Assembly: GCA_051382335.1 (NCBI GenBank)
Contig: JBBCAX010000231.1
Coordinates: forward strand, 1-22,760
DNA: 22,760 nt
Direction: 5' to 3'
From: Deltaproteobacteria bacterium TL4
Lineage (GTDB): Bacteria > SAR324 > NAC60-12
Position numbers and translations under genes: made by a program. Positions within the stretch are counted from its first letter, which is position 1; every line of letters starts with the position of its first letter. Positions 9,116 through 19,402 of this stretch are shown here, one piece after another. The notes beneath the pieces were generated by a model. It did no database searches. It was not told where the DNA came from and saw only the letters and a program-made list of their open reading frames with translations.

Positions 9116-10213
9116 TTAAATCTGATAATCCATAGGCACAGCATGTTTAACCTTTTCTTCCAGAAAAAATTTAACCCGACGTGGCAGGACAAACACGATT
9201 TCTCCCCTGCGTAATTTGAGACTCTGATAATCATCCCGACTCAAGATGGCCTCAAGGGATTTCTGATCCATGGTTGTTTTGAGTTCCAGGCGGACTATCG
9301 GACCAATCGTGCTGATATCCTGAATTTCAGCAGACAGACTATGTTTCGCATCTGTGGTACGACTCACTACCATGTCATGGGGACGCACATAACCCACGAT
9401 AGGAGCAGAAGGAGCCTCTGAATATTCAGGAACCTCAATTCTCATAATGCCGATATCAACCTGTCCCTGATGCACCCTGCCATGAAACAGATTCACATCC
9501 CCCAGAAACTGATACACAAAAGGATTGACCGGGTGTTCATAGACCTCATCAGGAGTTCCAATCTGTTCAATATTGCCATGATTCATGACGACAATCTGAT
9601 CAGCCACTTCCATGGCTTCTTCCTGATCATGGGTCACAAACACACTGGTCACATGCAAATCATCATGCAAGCGACGTAACCAGCGTCGAAGTTCTTTGCG
9701 CACCTGGGCATCCAGTGCCGCAAAAGGTTCATCGAGAAGCAACACACGAGGTTCCACAGCCAAGGCTCGGGCTAACGCAATCCGTTGTCGTTGTCCGCCT
9801 GAAAGTTGCGAAGGATAATGGTCTGCCAGCCAGTCCAATTGCACCATTTCCAGCAGTTTTTTGACCTTGTCCCTGATTTCCAGACGTGAAAGACGAATCG
9901 CGCGCTGTTTGACCCTCAAGCCAAATGCCACATTTTCAAAAATGGTCATGTGCCGGAACAAGGCATAATGCTGAAACACAAATCCGACCTGCCGGTCCTT
10001 GACACTTTGGCAAGTGGCAGATTCTCCCTGGAGAATGACTTCTCCAGAATCCTGTTGTTCGAGTCCCGCAATAATCCGCAGCAAGGTTGTTTTTCCACAG
10101 CCTGAAGGACCCAGCAAAGCCACCAGTTCACCATCGGGGATGGTGAGGTTAATCTCGTTCAATGCCGAAAAATTGCCAAAACGTTTGTTGATATGATGTA
10201 ATTCAATGCTCAT
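9116..10213 (-). CDS. cysA: Sulfate/thiosulfate ABC transporter ATP-binding subunit
   Basis: [37 protein letters not shown]-terminal TOBE-like region; operon context. Confidence 0.96.
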
Positions 10214-10226
10214 CGGTGTCTTCCTC

Positions 10227-11099
10227 TTATAAAACTTTTTGTTGTTTTGCTTTCCACTCCACCAGACTTTTACTGATCAGGGTCACTAATGCCAGAATCA
10301 CCAGAATAGAAGCCACAGCAAAGGACGCTGTAAAATTATATTCATTGTAGAGAATTTCCACATGCAGGGGGACGGTGTTGGTCATTCCGCGAATATGTCC
10401 TGACACCACAGAAACAGCGCCAAATTCTCCCAGAGCACGAGCACTGGCCAGAATCACCCCATAGAGGAGGCCCCACTTGATATTGGGTAAAGTAACTTTG
10501 GTGAAGATTTGCCAACCATTCGCGCCTAAGACCAGCGCTGATTGTTCTTCTTCAGTTCCTTGGGATTGCATCAGGGGAATCAGTTCACGAGCCACAAAGG
10601 GAAATGTAATAAAAATGGTTGCCAGCAGAATCCCTGGAATTGCAAAAATAATCTGAATATCTCGTTCCATCAGAAAGGATCCCATCCATCCTTGAGCTCC
10701 AAATAACAAAACAAAGATCAACCCGGAGATCACAGGAGACACAGCAAAGGGAAGATCAATCAGAGTGATCAGGATACTTTTGCCACTGAATTCAAATTTG
10801 GTGATACACCAGGCGGCAACCAGTCCAAATAGCGTGTTGGCAACCACAGAGACCAGCAGCACCTGCAATGACAGTTTCATTGCGGCAACCGTGTCTTCAT
10901 GACGGATCGCCTCCCAGTAAGCTATCAACCCTTTTTCCAGCGCCTGCACAAACACCGCAATCAAGGGCACCACCAGAAACAGTGTCAGAAAACCGATGGC
11001 AACTCCGATCAGTAACCATCTGAGCCAATATGGCTCTGTGACCCCTGAACTTTGGGTGGTATCGTTCCAGTATTTTTTGTGGGGATTTAATTTTCCCAT
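10227..11099 (-). CDS. cysW: Sulfate ABC transporter permease CysW
   Basis: [37 protein letters not shown]. Confidence 0.96.
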
Positions 11100-11121: not shown

Positions 11122-11946
11122 TTAGTGGCGCTTGTCCCACCACTGGAGCAGGTTAAAGACCAGCAACATTGAAAAAGAAAGCAAGAGCATCACTGTGCCA
11201 ATGGCGGTGGCACCTTCATAATCATACTGTTCAAGACGGGTGATGATCAGCAAGGGGACAATCTCTGTCTTGAACGGCAGATTACCAGAGATAAATACTA
11301 CCGAGCCATACTCTCCCAGCCCACGGGCAAATGATAGTGAAAAGCCTGTCAGCAAAGACGGTAGAAGATGAGGCAGGATGATGCGTCTGAAAATTTGTAA
11401 GCGACTTGCCCCCAGGCTGGCAGCCGCTTCTTCTGCCTCGGTTTCCCACTCTTCCAGGACGGGTTGTACTGTGCGAACCACAAAGGGCAGTCCGATAAAA
11501 ATCAGCGCCACCGTGATTCCAATCGGAGTAAAGGCCACCTTGATCGCAAAACGTTCTAAATACTGACCAATCCAACCGTTGCTGGAAAAAATCGCAGTGA
11601 GCGAAATTCCTGCTACCGCGGTTGGCAAGGCAAAGGGCAAATCAACAAGTCCATCCACCAGTCTTTTAGCTGGAAAAGAATAGCGAATCAGAACCCAGGC
11701 GACAATACCGCCAAACACGGTGTTCACCAGTGCGGCAAGCAGAGCGGTGGTCAGACTGAGCTGGAAGGAGGCCATTACTCTTTTTGAAAAAATAACGTTC
11801 ACAAAAGCCCCCCAATCCATACTCAGCGTTTTGAGCAGCATGGCAGACAAAGGAATGAGAACGAGCAAGGTCAGGTAGGTCAGGGTGAGACCTAGTGTCA
11901 AGTGAAACCCCGGCAGTAGTCTCCGGGAAGGTGTAAGACCATTCAT
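11122..11946 (-). CDS. cysT: Sulfate ABC transporter permease CysT (CysU)
   Basis: DLPFALPTAVAG, PFVVRTVQPVL, EEAAASLGAS, GEYGSVVFISGN. Confidence 0.96.
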   Translation of the reverse strand: MNGLTPSRRLLPGFHLTLGLTLTYLTLLVLIPLSAMLLKTLSMDWGAFVNVIFSKRVMASFQLSLTTALLAALVNTVFGGIVAWVLIRYSFPAKRLVDGLVDLPFALPTAVAGISLTAIFSSNGWIGQYLERFAIKVAFTPIGITVALIFIGLPFVVRTVQPVLEEWETEAEEAAASLGASRLQIFRRIILPHLLPSLLTGFSLSFARGLGEYGSVVFISGNLPFKTEIVPLLIITRLEQYDYEGATAIGTVMLLLSFSMLLVFNLLQWWDKRH

Positions 11947-12220: not shown

Positions 12221-13225
12221 CTAGGGTTGATAAATCTGATCAAACACGCCTCCATCGGCAAAATGGGTATCCTGCGCTTTTTGCCATCCGCCAAAGGTAT
12301 CATCAATCGTGATCAGATTGATTTTAGGAAACTGAGAACTATAGAGGATTGCCGTTTTTTCCAGCCTGGGCCGATAATAGTGTTTTCCGGCCAGTTTTTG
12401 TCCTTCTTCAGAATAGAGGTATTCCAGATACGCTCTTGCCAATTCCTGGGTTCCATGTTTGATGGCATTTTTATCCACGACGGTAACAGAAGGTTCCGCC
12501 AGAATACTGAGTGAGGGAACCACAATCTGGACTTTGCCTGCGCCTAATTCTTTCACGGCTAGGAAGGCTTCATTTTCCCAGGCCAGCAACACATCTCCAA
12601 TCCCACGTTGGACAAATGTCGTTGTAGAGCCACGTGCGCCAGAATCAAGAACCGGGACGTTTCTAAAAAGTTGTCCCACAAATTCACGAGCTTTTTGCTC
12701 TCCACTTCCATATTTTTTAAGGGCATAACCCCACGCTGCCAAATAGTTCCAGCGGGCTCCCCCAGAGGTTTTTGGATTCGGGGTAATTACAGAAATACCC
12801 GGTTTGATCAGATCATCCCAATCCTTGATGTTTTCAGGATTTCCCTGACGCACCAGAAATACGATGGTGGACGTATAGGGAGCACTGTTGTTCGGAAGTC
12901 GTTTGATCCAGTCTTTTGGAATCAATGCTCTATGCTGATATAAAGCCTCCACATCATAAGCCAGAGCCAGAGTCACAACATCTGCCTGAAGTCCGTCAAT
13001 CACGGATCTGGCTTGTTTTCCGGAGCCTCCATGCGACTGATTGAATTTGACATCAACCCCTGTTTTTGCTTTCCAATACTTACCAAACAAGGTGTTGTAC
13101 TCAACATAAAGTTCACGGGTCGGATCATACGAAACATTTAAAAATTCTATCTGCTTCTGCGCTAACGCGAGGGAAGCAAATCCCAATAAAACGACGATGA
13201 GCACATTCCAAAATTTACGAAACAT
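12221..13225 (-). CDS. sbp: Periplasmic sulfate-binding protein
   Basis: Signal peptide, [41 protein letters not shown] upstream of the ATG. Confidence 0.96.
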
Positions 13226-13455
13226 AAGTCTCCTTTGAAAAAATGAATTAACAATGAATGGAAAAAATCTCGTGTACTGAATAACTGGTTTTTAGACGTC
13301 AGGTAAAACAAAACCACCAGAAAATCACATGAGCTACTGAAATCAGGACGAGCGAAGCCGCACCACAGCTTAGCAAGCCTAAACACTTGACAAAAATAAA
13401 CGCTAGATTGAAATTAAACCTGTATGAATTTTTCCAAGTAAAAAATCTGAAAGGT

Positions 13456-13581
13456 TCAGCAGCAACAGAGGCAACAACAAGAGGGGCGCATGAAAAGAGA
13501 AATAAGGGGAGACTTTACTTGTGGCATAGGACGCCGTTCCCGCAAATAGAAACTCGAATGAGCGCTATTTAAGTGATTCAT
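13456..13581 (-). CDS. Putative cysteine-rich leader peptide (41 aa) of the sulfate transport operon
   Basis: Manual translation: MNHLNSAHSSFYLRERRPMPQVKSPLISLFMRPSCCCLCCC-stop. GGAG lies 7 nt before ATG 13581; further in-frame ATGs at 13527 and 13491. Absent from the supplied ORF track. Confidence 0.8.
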   Translation of the reverse strand: MNHLNSAHSSFYLRERRPMPQVKSPLISLFMRPSCCCLCCC

Positions 13582-13633
13582 ATTTCAACTCCAGAAAGGG
13601 TTTGAAAATAAGCATTTGAATAAACTGGGGGCG

Positions 13634-13662
13634 ACCATAGCGAAGTGAGAAATCAAAAGCAA
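13634..13662 (-). promoter_or_regulatory. Sigma70-like promoter for the leader and the sbp-cysTWA operon
   Basis: TTGCTT (13662-13657), 17-nt spacer, TATGGT (13639-13634), with AT-rich sequence upstream. Confidence 0.55.
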
Positions 13663-13693
13663 GATATTTTTCATAAATGACGGGCTTCTTAGG

Positions 13694-13739
13694 GACCAGG
13701 CCAATCAGAACCAGAACTTCAACCAGAGGTGCGATCACA
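13694..13739 (-). pseudogene. Relic of the 3' end of an acr3 gene
   Basis: 13698-13739 matches 16283-16324 at 38/42 nt. Translates VIAPLVEVLVLIGLV versus [15 protein letters not shown] in Acr3. Confidence 0.75.
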
Positions 13740-13748
13740 AAAGAACCT

Positions 13749-15473
13749 TTATTTCCAAGGTTCCAGAACGACTCGCTCTGAGTGTTCCATAATCTCCCTG
13801 AGATATTTGATTTCCTGTCTTTGGCGAGAACGAAGTACGGGATCCTTTATTTCGAGAGGTGTCAGACTTTGGTTAATGACCCAGGCGAAGGGCTTGATTT
13901 GCGCTCGTTTCAAGTCTCGTTCAAGCCGCGTCGTCTCGTGAATAGGCGTAGACTCCGGAAGCGTGATGAGAAGGACTTGAGTGCGAGCTGGGTCACGCAG
14001 ACGTGGCAGAAGACGTTGAACTGCTTCAGGACTGCCGCTGGATTTGCGAAGTACCTCGCGATGGTAGGCTTCCGCGGCATCGAGCAGGAGCAGTGTGTGC
14101 CCTGTAGGTGCCGTATCGATGATAATGAACTTGTCTTCTCCCTCCGCTACGGTGTTGGCAAAAGCACGAAAGACAGCAATCTCCTCGGTGCAGGGAGAGC
14201 GCAAATCTTCCTCAAGGAGCGCTCGTCCATGGGCATCCAATCCTTGTCCCGCTACAGCAAGGACCTCCTCGGTGTAACGTCTTGTTTCAAGTGCTGGATC
14301 GATTCGTGTTACCTTCAAGTTGGGAAGTCTCTGAAGTACGGCCTGTTCCACATGAGCAGCCGGATCTGTTGTTGTCAGCGTCACCTGGTAACCCATCCGC
14401 GCAAGTTGGGATGCGATACGAACTGCCACTGTTGTCTTTCCAACGCCGCCTTTTCCCATCGTCATCACCACCCCTTTTCCGCGAAGCGCAATCTGCGCAA
14501 TCAGTGCGTCCAGGCCATCGTAGTCCAGGAGATTGGAAGCTATCGGATTGGAAAAAGCTGGCACTTCATCAGGATCGCTCATTTTTCGCAGGGACTCAAC
14601 CCCAACAAGTTCGAAGGCCAGAAGTGGAACATCAACACGGGATAATGAGCGGAGTCCCTCCGACATGGACTCAAGTGATTCGATTCCCCTTGCTTCCATA
14701 GCGACAGCCGTTGCGTCGTTTAAATCTCCAGCCCGAAAAACGCCATTGAGGATCATCCGCATGTTACTCATGCCAAGCTGAGACAATTCGTTCCGTGTGC
14801 GCTCCGCCTCAGTGAGTGAGGGTCGATCTGGACGAGCCACTAGCACGATCGTCGTTTTCCTGGCATCGCGCAACGCCTTGTTGGAGGCAGCATAAAGCTC
14901 CTGTTGAGCCTTCAGCCCTGATAGCGGTCCCAGACACGACGTTCCTCCTGAATTTGTTTCGATGAAGCTCGACCAGGCTGCGGGCAATTCAAGCAAGCGT
15001 AACGTGTGTCCTGTTGGGGCAGTATCAAAGATGACGTGATCGAATTCTTTGGTGAAAGCGGTATCCCCAAGCAGCTTGGAAAATTCGTCAAAGGCCGCAA
15101 TTTCCATAGTACAGGCGCCTGAAAGTTGCTCTTCAATACTGGCGAGCGCAACCGCAGGCAATAGCCCGCGATACGGGGCAATAATTCGCTCCCGATAGGC
15201 ATGAGCAGCCTGTTCGGGATCAATGTTCAGGGCAAAGAGACCGGGCATACGGGGTACAGCTTTTGGCTTACTTGTAAGCTCTACACCAAGCACCTCGTCG
15301 AGATTCGACGCGGGATCGGTACTGATGAGTAAAACCTGCTTGCCCGCATCCGCGAGACCAATCGCTGTAGCGCAAGCTGAAGATGTTTTTCCGACACCTC
15401 CCTTACCCGTAAAAAAAAGGATCCTGGTCGCATTATCGAGGAGTTTGGATAGTGGCGTTCCTTTCAGCAACAT
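13749..15473 (-). CDS. arsA: Arsenical pump-driving ATPase
   Basis: Two GKGGVGKT P-loops, two DTAPTGH motifs, metalloid-binding Cys in SGACT, SCLGP and SPCTEE. Start at ATG 15473 (SD AAGGGGA), overlapping the end of arsD. Confidence 0.96.
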   Translation of the reverse strand: MLLKGTPLSKLLDNATRILFFTGKGGVGKTSSACATAIGLADAGKQVLLISTDPASNLDEVLGVELTSKPKAVPRMPGLFALNIDPEQAAHAYRERIIAPYRGLLPAVALASIEEQLSGACTMEIAAFDEFSKLLGDTAFTKEFDHVIFDTAPTGHTLRLLELPAAWSSFIETNSGGTSCLGPLSGLKAQQELYAASNKALRDARKTTIVLVARPDRPSLTEAERTRNELSQLGMSNMRMILNGVFRAGDLNDATAVAMEARGIESLESMSEGLRSLSRVDVPLLAFELVGVESLRKMSDPDEVPAFSNPIASNLLDYDGLDALIAQIALRGKGVVMTMGKGGVGKTTVAVRIASQLARMGYQVTLTTTDPAAHVEQAVLQRLPNLKVTRIDPALETRRYTEEVLAVAGQGLDAHGRALLEEDLRSPCTEEIAVFRAFANTVAEGEDKFIIIDTAPTGHTLLLLDAAEAYHREVLRKSSGSPEAVQRLLPRLRDPARTQVLLITLPESTPIHETTRLERDLKRAQIKPFAWVINQSLTPLEIKDPVLRSRQRQEIKYLREIMEHSERVVLEPWK

Positions 15474-16111
15474 GAAGTCCCCTTGCCAGACGTTTTTTCT
15501 GAAGTCTTCGATGGTCCACATCCACAACTCGTCTTTGGCTTGGGAGTTTCCTCCGCTGCTGTTGAAGTTGACGTTTGCGATGTTTCCTGATGCAGGTACT
15601 TTTCAGCAAGGGCAAGCATGGCCTTAGCTGGGGCTTCTTTGACATTTTGAGCGGTTATGACGGCACGCCACATATCTTCGTGTGATACTCCCATTTTTCG
15701 GGCTTTGTCATAGTGATATTTGAAACACGGCTCACAGTTGGATGCGATAGCTGCCCCAATCGCAACGAGTTCAGCGACAGCTTCCGTAAAAATACTCGGG
15801 TTGGGTGCGCTGAGGCCCGTCCACACAGCAAGCTCGGTGCGTGAGGGATAAACTCCGCTACTCTTGACCTCATCATTCACCTTGATGAGAGGCAAAGCGG
15901 ACTCCCCTTTTGACTCAAGAGCTGCCGTTACAGATGCGTCCGCGGCAAAGACACCAGGCTGTTGCGAGAGGGAAAAGCGCTCAATGGAAACTCCCTGACT
16001 CTTCAGCCAGTCGAGATCAGCCGCAAAGTGTACGAGCTGCGGATCAACAGAAGGTCCACAGATTCCTGTGGAACAACACATGGCAGGATCGAATACACGG
16101 ATACTGGTCAT
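15464..16111 (-). CDS. arsD: ArsD metallochaperone fused to a CMD/AhpD-like domain
   Basis: N-terminal DPAMCCSTGICG; second domain ELVAIGAAIASNCEPCFKYH; Cys-rich tail SCGCG...SCC. Confidence 0.9.
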   Translation of the reverse strand: MTSIRVFDPAMCCSTGICGPSVDPQLVHFAADLDWLKSQGVSIERFSLSQQPGVFAADASVTAALESKGESALPLIKVNDEVKSSGVYPSRTELAVWTGLSAPNPSIFTEAVAELVAIGAAIASNCEPCFKYHYDKARKMGVSHEDMWRAVITAQNVKEAPAKAMLALAEKYLHQETSQTSTSTAAEETPKPKTSCGCGPSKTSEKTSGKGTSCC

Positions 16112-16233
16112 AGCAACTCCTTTTTATAGTTTATGGATGAGGGTTTATAACTAAGGCCGAAGGCACTCCTTTTTCCTGATTATTCAGCCGGATGAGCCTT
16201 ATGCCCCATTTATGGAGACAGATTCCTCGTAGT

Positions 16234-17292
16234 TTACTTTTCTCCAAAGTAATTTTCCTTGAATTTCAGAGAAACATGAACGAGGCCAATCAGAACCGGA
16301 ACTTCGACCAGCGGTCCGATCACAGCGGCAAAGGCGACTCCCGAGTTTATCCCGAAGACAGCAACCGCGACGGCGATCGCAAGCTCAAAATTATTGGAAG
16401 CTGCCGTGAAACTTAAAGACGCTGATTGGGGATAAGTGGCTCCCATCTTTTTTGAAAGATAAAAAGATATCAGAAACATGATCACAAAGTAAATACACAA
16501 CGGAATGGCGATGCGGATTACATCAAACGGCAGCTTCACAATATATTCGCCTTTTAACGAGAACATCACAAAAATGGTGAAGAGCAGAGCAATCAGGGTC
16601 AGAGGACTGATTTTGGGAATGAATTTTTTTTCATACCATTCTTTCCCTTTCGTTTTTAATCCAACAAAGCGAGTCAGCATCCCTCCGATGAAAGGAATTC
16701 CCAGATAGATAAAAACACTTTCAGCAATTTGTCCTATCGAAATATCAACGACAGACCCTTTTAACCCCAACCACTGAGGCAACAGAGTGATGAAAATATA
16801 GGCGTACACCGAGAAAAACAAGACTTGGAAAATGGAGTTAAACGCGACCAGACCCGCACAAAATTCTCTATCGCCCCGTGCCAGATCATTCCACACAATG
16901 ACCATCGCGATACAACGTGCCAAGCCAATCAAAATAAGTCCTACCATGTATTCATTGTAATCGGACAGCAACGTAACCGCCAGAAGGAACATTAACACGG
17001 GGCCAATGATCCAATTTTGAATCAGGGAAAGGAACAATAATTTGACGTTTCTAAAAATCTGTCCTAACTCTTCATACCGGACTTTGGCCAAAGGCGGATA
17101 CATCATCAGAATCAAGCCAATGGCAATGGGAATATTAGTGGTTCCCGATTTGAATTGATCCCAAAATCCGACAATGGAAGGAACGCCATAGCCAATCAGC
17201 ACCCCGACAAACATGGCTGAAAAGATCCACAGGGTTAAATAACGATCCAGAAATGACAGTTTTTTGGTTAAGGGTGACATCCGGTTTCTCAT
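16234..17292 (-). CDS. acr3: Acr3-family arsenite efflux transporter
   Basis: [46 protein letters not shown]. Alternative start at 17280. Confidence 0.96.
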
Positions 17293-17345
17293 TTTATAAG
17301 GGTTATTTCAACATCAACGGGAACTGACTCTTTCTCCGCCTTTGA

Positions 17346-17732
17346 TTAAAGATTTTCAAGGGCCGACTTGACCTTGTTACCAATGAGATCTCGAACAACA
17401 CGAAATTCATCAGGGCCCATGTTCCTGGGGTCTGGAATATTCCAATCTTCCCTTTTTTTGGCACGAACGAAAGGACATTTATCTCCACATCCCATCGTGA
17501 CTACCAAATCGTATACTATATCGGGAATTTCATTCAGCGATTTTGAGGTATGTTGACTCAAGTCATAACCCATTGCTCGCATCGCCTCAATCGCCTTGGG
17601 ATTGATACGTCCTGAGGGAGCAGAACCCGCACTATACACTTCAACCGTATTGTTGCCATAGAGACGCGCAAACGCCTGTGCCATCTGGCTACGGTTAGAA
17701 TTTTCGATACACACAAACAAGAGGTTTTTCAT
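17346..17732 (-). CDS. arsC: Arsenate reductase, LMW-PTPase fold
   Basis: CX5R loop CIENSNR, SAGS, resolving pair MGCGDKCP, WNIPDP. Confidence 0.88.
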   Translation of the reverse strand: MKNLLFVCIENSNRSQMAQAFARLYGNNTVEVYSAGSAPSGRINPKAIEAMRAMGYDLSQHTSKSLNEIPDIVYDLVVTMGCGDKCPFVRAKKREDWNIPDPRNMGPDEFRVVRDLIGNKVKSALENL

Positions 17733-17762
17733 AGTTTTCCTAGAAGAAGAAGGTGAGTCGTC

Positions 17763-17993
17763 TCATAGCCATTCACGAATCTTCGCGGGGGTGGGAACCG
17801 AACCAGAGTGAACCACTTTTTCATCCACAACCACTCCCGGAGTCGCCATCACGTGATATTTCATGATTTCTTCAGGCGTTTTTACTTTCACCACTTCCAC
17901 CTCCAAATGTCTGTCCATAATTTCTTTACGAATCAATTCTTCCGTTTTGAGGCACTTGCTACAACCTGTCCCCAGTATTTTGATAGTTTTCAT
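17763..17993 (-). CDS. Small thioredoxin-like redox-active disulfide protein
   Basis: IKILGTGCSKC...VMATPGVVVD. Start at ATG 17993 with SD AAGGA. Confidence 0.88.
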   Translation of the reverse strand: MKTIKILGTGCSKCLKTEELIRKEIMDRHLEVEVVKVKTPEEIMKYHVMATPGVVVDEKVVHSGSVPTPAKIREWL

Positions 17994-18017
17994 TGTTCCT
18001 TCTCGAAGCATAAAATT

Positions 18018-19001
18018 TTATAGGATTCCCCAAAAATAATTGAAGAACCACCCTACCAACGTAAACGCGACTAATAACACCCCAAACAAAATCCCCAGAA
18101 GTTTCCATTCCATGACCTGTTTGAGCAGCATGAATTCAGGAATACTGGCAGCGATGGTACTCATGGAAAACGCGAGCGTGGTTCCCACAGGCAGTCCTTT
18201 GGCAAGCAGGGTTTGCATCACAGGAATGATCCCTGTCGCATTGGAGTACAGGGGAATTCCCACCAAGACAGCCAAAGGAACAGACCACCATTGCCCCGCT
18301 CCCAACGTATCGGTAATCCAGACTTCAGGAACCAATCCGTGCAATCCGGCTCCCACACCCACACCAATAATCACCCATTTCCAAACACGACTGAAAATTT
18401 CCTTCATCTCAGTCAGGGCAAAGGCATGTCGTTCCTGAAAGGATAGCTTCACCGCAGTCAACGCGTTATCGGGAAGATTATCCTGAGGAATCGCCTGACG
18501 CAAAAAAGGCAGCAGGAAACGTTCTGTTTTCAGAAGATCCATGACCAGCCCACCGACAATCCCTACCGTCAATCCGGCCGCGATATACACCAACATAAAA
18601 GTCCATCCCAGCATACTGCCAAGCATCACCACGGCGACTTCATTGATCATGGGCGAGGTGATCAGAAAAGCCATTGTGATTCCAATCGGAATACGGGCTG
18701 TGGTGAAGCCCATAAACAAGGGAATGCTCGAACAGGAACAGAAAGGCGTCACAGATCCAAACAAGGCGGCCAATACATATCCGGACCACCGCCCCTTTCT
18801 CTGGAGGTAATCTCTTATACGTTCGGTGTTCATGGATGCCCTTAGAAGGGCGATCCCATAGATCATGATGACCAGCAATACCAATATTTTGGTAGTATCC
18901 TCGATAAAAAAATGGAGGCTTTGTCCCAACCTGGATTGCAGCGAAATTTTCATAATATCTTCAACCAGCCAAGTCGCCAGTTGTGTGAATACCTGGAACA
19001 T
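18018..19001 (-). CDS. ArsP/DUF318-family permease
   Basis: TPFCSCSSIP, FLITSPMINE, GIPLYSN, ASIPEF. Start at ATG 19001 with SD GAGGAG. Confidence 0.88.
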   Translation of the reverse strand: MFQVFTQLATWLVEDIMKISLQSRLGQSLHFFIEDTTKILVLLVIMIYGIALLRASMNTERIRDYLQRKGRWSGYVLAALFGSVTPFCSCSSIPLFMGFTTARIPIGITMAFLITSPMINEVAVVMLGSMLGWTFMLVYIAAGLTVGIVGGLVMDLLKTERFLLPFLRQAIPQDNLPDNALTAVKLSFQERHAFALTEMKEIFSRVWKWVIIGVGVGAGLHGLVPEVWITDTLGAGQWWSVPLAVLVGIPLYSNATGIIPVMQTLLAKGLPVGTTLAFSMSTIAASIPEFMLLKQVMEWKLLGILFGVLLVAFTLVGWFFNYFWGIL

Positions 19002-19012
19002 AAGAACACTCC

Positions 19013-19402
19013 TCATGATTGGCAACTTATCTGTTTTTCCTGCTGAATTGTATTGATGGACTCAATGTCCTGTTGCAGCAGGGCATACCTATCCGGCAAG
19101 GCATCCAAAATACAATGAATCATTTCCTGAATTGAATCGGTCGCCGGTTTGAGCGAGTAGTAAATCCACACCCCCTCCCTGCGCGCCTGAATCAGAGCAT
19201 TCTGTTTCAGATAATTTAAATGCCTTGAAATTTTGGAATTGCCATACCCTGTCACCTGCTCAATATGACAGTTGCACAGTTCGCCCTTAGCGCCCAGCAG
19301 ATTCAGGATACGTAACCGTGCGGGATCAGACAACGCCCGAAACAAAAACGCCAGAGATTCCAATAATTCTTCAGGTTTTTCTAAATGTTTGAATACAGGC
19401 AT
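19013..19402 (-). CDS. arsR: ArsR/SmtB-family repressor
   Basis: FRALSDPARLRIL, ELCNC metal site, ISRHL, RREGVWIYYSL. Confidence 0.93.
   Translation of the reverse strand: MPVFKHLEKPEELLESLAFLFRALSDPARLRILNLLGAKGELCNCHIEQVTGYGNSKISRHLNYLKQNALIQARREGVWIYYSLKPATDSIQEMIHCILDALPDRYALLQQDIESINTIQQEKQISCQS

Follow-up and report, generated by a model that had tools for sequence, protein, structure and literature searches.

The sulfate transport operon sbp-cysTWA in the analysed stretch of DNA (22,760 nucleotides, hereafter the window) is preceded by an open reading frame of 41 codons that ends in a run of cysteine codons. Sequence and genomic context indicate that this frame is, in all likelihood, a Cys-tRNA-sensing leader for the operon. 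Cysteine sensing had been proposed for it in an earlier, sequence-only reading of this DNA, and the proposal is supported by the uniqueness of the run in the genome, by similar leaders before a sulfite-reductase-type gene in five genomes of the same family, by cysteine leaders before sbp operons of another phylum, and by the lack of CysB and CymR.

Leader ORF and its position

The features of the locus, all on the minus strand, are as follows.

9116..10213, minus strand: cysA (TIGR00968 above cut-off)
10227..11099, minus strand: cysW (TIGR02140 above cut-off)
11122..11946, minus strand: cysT (TIGR02139 above cut-off)
12221..13225, minus strand: sbp, sulfate-binding protein (NF008022 and TIGR00971 above cut-off)
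13226..13455, minus strand: 230-nt spacer, predicted zone of premature termination, no intrinsic terminator
13456..13581, minus strand: leader ORF (uORF), ATG-led, 41 codons and 41 aa, stop TGA
13459..13479, minus strand: Cys run CCCLCCC abutting the TGA, predicted sensing codons, sequence unique in the genome
13480..13524, minus strand: C/U-rich, G-poor tract inside the ORF, candidate Rho-loading site (17 C, 4 G and 13 YC in 45 nt)
13589..13592, minus strand: leader Shine-Dalgarno (SD) GGAG, 7 nt before the ATG at 13581
13634..13662, minus strand: weak promoter candidate TTGCTT-17-TATGGT (7/12)
13742..13764, minus strand: hairpin of terminator type across the arsA stop, predicted to part the ars operon from the leader

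The transporter genes were identified by the NCBIfam sulfate-ABC cut-offs, and sbp has its own SD, GGAG at 13233-13230. The 3' end of the leader ORF reads TGT TGT TGC CTC TGT TGC TGC TGA, and Cys occurs nowhere else in the frame. Re-reading of the letters thus bears out what had been described earlier: a minus-strand ORF of 41 codons ending in CCCLCCC-TGA, a GGAG at 13592-13589 with 7-nt spacing, and a distance of 230 nt from the leader stop to the sbp ATG (13225) on the same strand. All of this was read from one assembled sequence, contig C231 of a 6.6-Mb assembly. The position and strand of the leader fit the first ORF on the sbp transcript, with a weak promoter candidate ahead of it.

The leader peptide is absent from a collection of 15 billion proteins, and phmmer returned no hits among the 1.84 billion representatives searched; the lack of protein homologues fits the expectation for a leader. 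Positions 13000-14000 of the window have no Rfam match at the gathering score, and the one match found there is a chance match (13.7 bits against 70). Reading of the leader TGA as selenocysteine was considered, as the genome encodes tRNA-Sec, and set aside as unlikely: the leaders of a related genome (G017) stop at TAA, and no more than an AU-rich weak stem was seen behind the window TGA.

Uniqueness in the genome and missing regulators

Among 35,688 intergenic short ORFs with distinct stops in the genome, only the window leader has six Cys in 8 codons, and an independent-codon model expects 0.004 such frames. When short ORFs with both an ATG and an SD are counted (n=1,746), one has six Cys in 8 codons, none has four or five, and 11 have three. 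The leader is not a shifted frame of any long ORF, and the other Cys-rich, stop-terminated frames examined in the genome lie inside long ORFs, for example as shifted poly-Leu. One of these, a 7-Cys frame 630 nt before cysK (G000:C80:10510 region), was discarded as a candidate leader, being a shifted poly-Leu frame of a long ORF with no start codon; frames of this type are a trap for pattern scans.

About 2,025 genes of the genome have free upstream DNA, and few sulfur operons are among them. A role for the frame is argued first by the position of this single six-Cys outlier before a sulfate transporter. If the leader were vestigial or without function, or the frame a product of chance, with sbp controlled otherwise or constitutive, this would account for the missing orthologue, the weak promoter and the lack of a conserved RNA structure. 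Such a reading is nevertheless improbable in view of the chance expectation given above, the intact ATG, SD and stop, the position before one of the few sulfur operons, and the recurrence of the architecture before sulfur genes in related genomes.

The remark in the sequence-only reading that no cysB is present in the window extends to the whole genome, where the single LysR-substrate match reaches 71 bits and the cut-off for CysB is 402. The three Rrf2 proteins of the genome all score far under the CymR cut-off. Rho is encoded at full length (TIGR00767, 706 bits; cut-off 509), and there is one tRNA-Cys.

A point against the proposal is that Cys-run short ORFs were not found at other sulfur genes of this genome: there is no Cys leader before sir, cysH, sat, the three cysK/M genes or a second sbp operon. 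The latter is a complete sbp-cysTWA operon (L002, G000:C240) with an Sbp 66% identical to that of the window; it is divergent from a gene labelled by eye as a sigma-54-type activator.

Cysteine leaders in relatives

The sbp gene was not found in 40 relatives, nor in the 87 other genomes of the phylum, which is presumably SAR324; its absence from these 87 leaves the window leader with no direct orthologue. Conservation, to which the sequence-only reading had looked, could be followed in the phylum only away from sbp, where Cys-run leaders recur ahead of a gene of sulfite-reductase type. The 88 phylum genomes were scanned for a six-Cys pattern, and the true-stop matches listed outside G005, a repeat-rich 12-Mb genome, were taken; the 55 six-Cys matches of G005 and 10 unlisted matches were left out of the count, and a relaxed Cys pattern was too unspecific. 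Seven true-stop places were found among the matches listed outside G005, of which four lie in long ORFs and three are intergenic. All three intergenic places precede sulfur genes: the window leader and two in the same-family genome G017.

In G017, two tandem Cys-run leaders stand before a 749-aa gene of the nitrite/sulfite reductase family. The gene passes no equivalog cut-off; it is called sulfite-reductase-type here because its homologues adjoin PAPS reductase and cysK in G006, G015, G028, G033 and G007. The two leader units (G017:C25, L046:1501-1838) are each followed by a similar hairpin and form a candidate tandem attenuator. Seven same-family genomes have a reductase homologue of at least 67% identity with upstream DNA present, and in five of them (G017, G045, G051, G004, G048) a Cys-run leader precedes it. 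These kin leaders are frames of 30-41 codons that end in a Cys run, 140-195 nt before the gene. In G045, G048 and G051 the pattern CC-x-A-CC is invariant, and the codons upstream of it vary. Beyond the Cys codons, the window leader cannot be aligned with the kin leaders (p 0.05-0.83 for five of six); the exception, the second G017 leader (G017b, p<0.005), is probably due to the shared Cys codons. As the leaders of G045, G048 and G051 are alignable and the G017 copies are a duplication, the kin are not independent and represent about three events, with the window in addition.

Degenerate cases can also be observed, and they count in favour of a vestigial element. In G050 (L234), the promoter region is kept and about 160 nt including the leader are missing. 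In G048 (L235), the ATG misses the frame of the Cys run by one base and only a TTG just upstream is in frame, which makes this case ambiguous; the frame may be a degenerate allele, have an alternative start, or contain an assembly error. G044 has no leader before its reductase homologue, and more distant homologues, located mid-operon or behind an Rrf2 gene or rpsT, showed none. In the phylum, 30 loci of cysK-like genes and 29 of PAPS reductase yielded no convincing leader within about 1.5 kb.

In several other genera of the phylum, an Rrf2-family gene heads the sir or cysK-sir cluster (L246, L248, L256, L261, L272, L274, L275, L279), and no Cys leader was seen there. This suggests that the leader and an Rrf2 repressor are alternatives across the genera of the phylum.

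Genomic neighbourhood

An ars cluster (13749-19402; arsR-like, permease, arsC, acr3, arsD and arsA) lies directly upstream on the same strand, and the leader ORF begins 168 nt behind arsA. The frame might therefore be thought to belong to the ars operon and to encode a short thiol-bearing peptide, either a binder of arsenite or metals or a sensor of them on the ribosome. The latter would resemble CruR, a copper-responsive uORF that has a Cys motif and a rut inside the gene, as described in the available text of a review (PMC12360218). This origin is very unlikely, since a terminator-like hairpin closes arsA, no homologous peptide exists in the collections searched, and the six kin leaders precede the sulfite-reductase-type gene with no ars-like gene among their upstream neighbours.

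Other observations were made in the window. GC content is 0.52-0.54 at 14-16 kb and 0.43 around it. A glutamate-cysteine ligase-like gene is located at 757-2112. An ORF-like stretch with four near-identical repeats of 13 residues (39 nt) lies at 433-885 between two convergent genes, and a similar piece occurs on contig C228.

Promoter, spacer and RNA structure

The promoter TTGCTT-17-TATGGT named in the sequence-only reading is present as letters at 13662-13634, 52 nt upstream of the leader ATG, and is the only candidate. As a promoter it is unsupported, because it scores 7/12 and 24.7% of shuffles of the region yield an equally good site; a consensus promoter scan of the region found none.

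No intrinsic terminator was found in the spacer between leader and sbp. A hairpin with a 5-bp stem overlaps the leader stop and is followed by U6 at 13445, so that the Cys-stalled ribosome could act by blocking a weak intrinsic terminator or pause hairpin at this point. The hairpins over the stop in the first G017 leader (G017a) and in G048, both with U-rich tails, are significant (p 0.016 each) and agree with such a route. That of the window, however, has only -2.9 kcal/mol (p 0.67 against shuffles), and five of the seven leaders have no significant one; the hairpin was rejected as a common feature of the leaders, and this route is improbable. A long-range helix suggested by folding, 13463-13455/13341-13333, was no better than shuffles (p 0.42), and no conserved RNA structure was found for the window leader.

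The same cysteine-sensing leader could also act through RNA structure on sbp translation, as in the mycobacterial leader Ms5788A. Inside the leader ORF, 37 nt before the first Cys codon, a stretch of 8 bp does complement the region of the sbp SD, and masking of the Cys codons lowers the computed SD-opening energy by 1.4-2.1 kcal/mol in G017a, G017b and G051. Yet 72% of 600 control RBS regions pair with the leader ORF equally well or better, and no such switch was computed in G045, G048 and G004. In the window, the energy for opening the sbp SD is 6.5 with the leader released, 7.6 and 8.3 with the ribosome stalled, and 6.2 with a queued ribosome. An anti-SD switch was thus rejected for the window, as the sbp SD becomes no easier to open when the Cys codons are masked; the long-range helix, no better than shuffles, does not help it either. 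Control by sbp translation is unlikely, though less so than the hairpin route.

The sequence-only reading had drawn on the trp/his attenuators and on the mycobacterial systems. The run of cognate codons, the core of that analogy, is retained; a terminator attenuator of the trp/his type and an SD-sequestering switch are not.

A different element lies within the ORF itself. Among 4,768 intergenic 45-mers, the C/U tract immediately before the Cys codons belongs to the top 1.0% when ranked for C/G skew and to the top 0.4% when ranked for YC, and the region after the leader stop is not C-rich. When the leaders are ranked for the richness of this tract, five of six fall in the top 7%, and G048 at 20%. 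Comparable C-richness before the Cys run is seen in leaders of another phylum, many with terminator-like hairpins, so the tract does not single out Rho. Slowing at rare Arg codons in the manner of speFL was discarded, since CGG is not rare in the genome (7.5 per 1000).

Cysteine leaders at sbp loci of other phyla

At distant sbp loci (21 of 22 genome loci and 12 metagenome loci examined), no Cys-run leader was found within 900 nt; a porin gene is directly upstream of many of them. G091 and 11 further sbp loci of its phylum likewise showed none. In Halopseudomonas-type sbp loci (L010:1334, L011:1344, L035:395, L036:1344), an AGGAG-led ORF of 26-34 codons with a conserved HQxCRMC stands before sbp, preceded by another ORF that we take to be oscA-like. 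The HQxCRMC ORF may be a leader with two Cys, or may be related to the CRxMC motif of the family described next.

Genomes of another phylum (centre G088; the Sbp of one member is labelled 'Deltaproteobacteria bacterium') were among the best Sbp matches, and that phylum was searched for this reason. The sbp gene occurs in 32 of its 93 genomes. Of 31 sbp loci retrieved, 20 have Cys-rich short ORFs, 21 in all, immediately ahead of an operon start; five other script matches were left out, of which two belong to another phylum, two are overlapping frames and one is distant. In all 21 leaders, a GCCGRY arm 7 nt after a Cys codon pairs with RYCGGC 55-86 nt downstream. When the leaders are aligned with MAFFT, pairing holds in 91% of cells, and two-sided changes are seen in four of the eight pairs; these counts are inflated by relatedness, and none of 500 shuffles reached them. 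A terminator-like hairpin is present in 13 of the 21, and the second arm overlaps it in about eight.

A model built from these leaders (R1) matched 31 places in 23 of the 93 genomes at 27-90 bits. Nine new matches were examined and eight have Cys-rich short ORFs; two weaker matches add two sbp loci, bringing the phylum to 22 of 31 sbp loci with a Cys leader. In most leaders a TTGAC box lies 24-40 nt ahead of the ATG, and an SD is usually lacking. They precede porin-sbp operons and also XRE-cupin regulators, a FAD/NAD-type protein and a beta-barrel gene (L071-L073 and L106-L129, with new matches L155-L157, L160, L161 and L163-L165).

This family is a candidate new cis-regulatory RNA family and a candidate trp-like cysteine attenuator. 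Judged by its letters, it places Cys leaders on sbp operons outside Actinobacteria, as an analogue and not as the family of the window, which has no GCCGRY arm and scores 6.1 bits (E 1.2) against R1. The phylum was also considered as donor of the operon and rejected: a quick Sbp tree does not nest the window there and gives it no starred clade, so that no donor is claimed.

Comparison with known systems

Experimental proof of cysteine sensing by the ribosome is known only from mycobacteria, where it is translational and occurs on leaderless ORFs. The polyCys sORFs described in the available text of 10.1101/834739 (Ms5788A and others) are demonstrated translational attenuators, and uORF attenuation for cysteine is stated to be previously undescribed. 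In Ms5788A, the vacated leader sequesters the downstream SD, and the spacer is 97 nt (same source). The window resembles these systems in its unannotated short ORF with consecutive 3' Cys codons before cysteine-related genes. Sensing of charged tRNA-Cys, shown for the mycobacterial sORFs, is only presumed for the window. The window leader differs in being SD-led, with no -10 box at leaderless spacing in its sequence, in its longer spacer of 230 nt, in the lack of a computed pairing switch, in its sulfate ABC target and in a host outside Actinobacteria.

Seliverstov et al. 2005 predicted cysteine leaders in Mycobacterium, P. acnes and B. longum; in the available text of that paper they have a Cys run near the stop, no conserved terminator and pyrimidine-rich tracts, with Rho proposed (PMC1262725). 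The window likewise has a Cys run by the stop, no terminator and a pyrimidine-rich tract, here inside the ORF. The actinobacterial targets are cys/cbs operons, whereas those found here are sbp-cysTWA and, in the kin, a sulfite-reductase-type gene, in a different phylum. A later paper of the same group reportedly covers Actinomycetales only. A search of mostly open-access literature turned up no paper on Cys leaders outside Actinobacteria. This agrees with the statement in the sequence-only reading that no description of such a leader was known in a genome of this type. Because Cys-run leaders near the stop, terminator-less and possibly dependent on Rho, had already been predicted for Actinobacteria (PMC1262725, available text), the novelty here is in the lineage and the target operon.

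A third comparison is provided by speFL, a 34-codon uORF with a 257-nt spacer, in which ribosomes stalled at the uORF end mask a rut that overlaps the ORF (10.1101/604074, available text). A 2025 review of Rho names tnaC, speFL, cruR, mgtL and hisL, and its main text, as available, contains no instance of the word cysteine (PMC12360218). The window shares with speFL, tnaC and cruR a short uORF, a long spacer, a proposed stall near the stop and a candidate rut overlapping the ORF. Those systems stall through a conserved nascent peptide that senses a ligand, whereas the window peptide is unconserved and the proposed stall would be at hungry Cys codons; no conserved arrest peptide was found in the window leader, which has no homologues, and Cys alone is common to the kin leaders.

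The classical trp/his attenuators carry a run of cognate codons in a leader peptide before the pathway operon, as the window leader does before its own. They depend on an intrinsic terminator and a competing antiterminator, neither of which was found in the window. In the present proposal, uncharged tRNA would serve as the signal, as it does for trp and his, in the geometry of speFL. The window leader would thus work like known systems, yet it misses at least one defining feature of each.

Proposed mechanism and significance

The frame is very probably a functional cysteine-codon leader. Attenuation gated by Rho was chosen as its mechanism because computation disfavoured the other routes and because of the analogy with speFL. 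When cysteine is scarce, the six Cys codons just before the stop would hold up a ribosome that lacks Cys-tRNA. Together with the ribosomes queued behind it, this stalled ribosome would mask the C/U tract and keep Rho off, allowing read-through into sbp-cysTWA. When cysteine is plentiful, the ribosome would finish and leave, the exposed tract would load Rho, and transcription would terminate in the spacer. Sulfate uptake is thus predicted to rise at cysteine shortage. Translation of the leader, stalling, co-transcription with sbp and the part played by Rho are steps that we infer from the letters, and for the whole chain, in which the Cys-stalled ribosome prevents Rho-dependent termination before sbp-cysTWA, the chances of being right or wrong appear equal.

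A broader reading, to which slightly less than an even chance is given, is that Cys-codon leaders are a widespread, unannotated substitute for CysB and CymR in deltaproteobacteria-like phyla. They would have at least two independent designs, one terminator-less and Rho-gated in the family of this genome, the other structured and trp-like, with its covarying helix, in the G088 phylum. Under this tentative reading, the Rho-gated form would have moved between operons, standing at sulfate ABC in the window and at sulfite reductase in the kin, there once as a tandem pair. If it is true, the window contains a cysteine attenuator that works by hungry codons and Rho, the first of its kind outside Actinobacteria.

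That Rho-dependent attenuation responds to cysteine has long been predicted, and a fragment of 440 nt makes the prediction testable in E. coli; the set contains natural controls in the G050 deletion and the G017 tandem pair. The locus and its kin point to a cysteine signal that is read in Gram-negative lineages without CysB and CymR. Its targets would be sulfate uptake and the reduction of sulfite, with control probably exerted on transcription.
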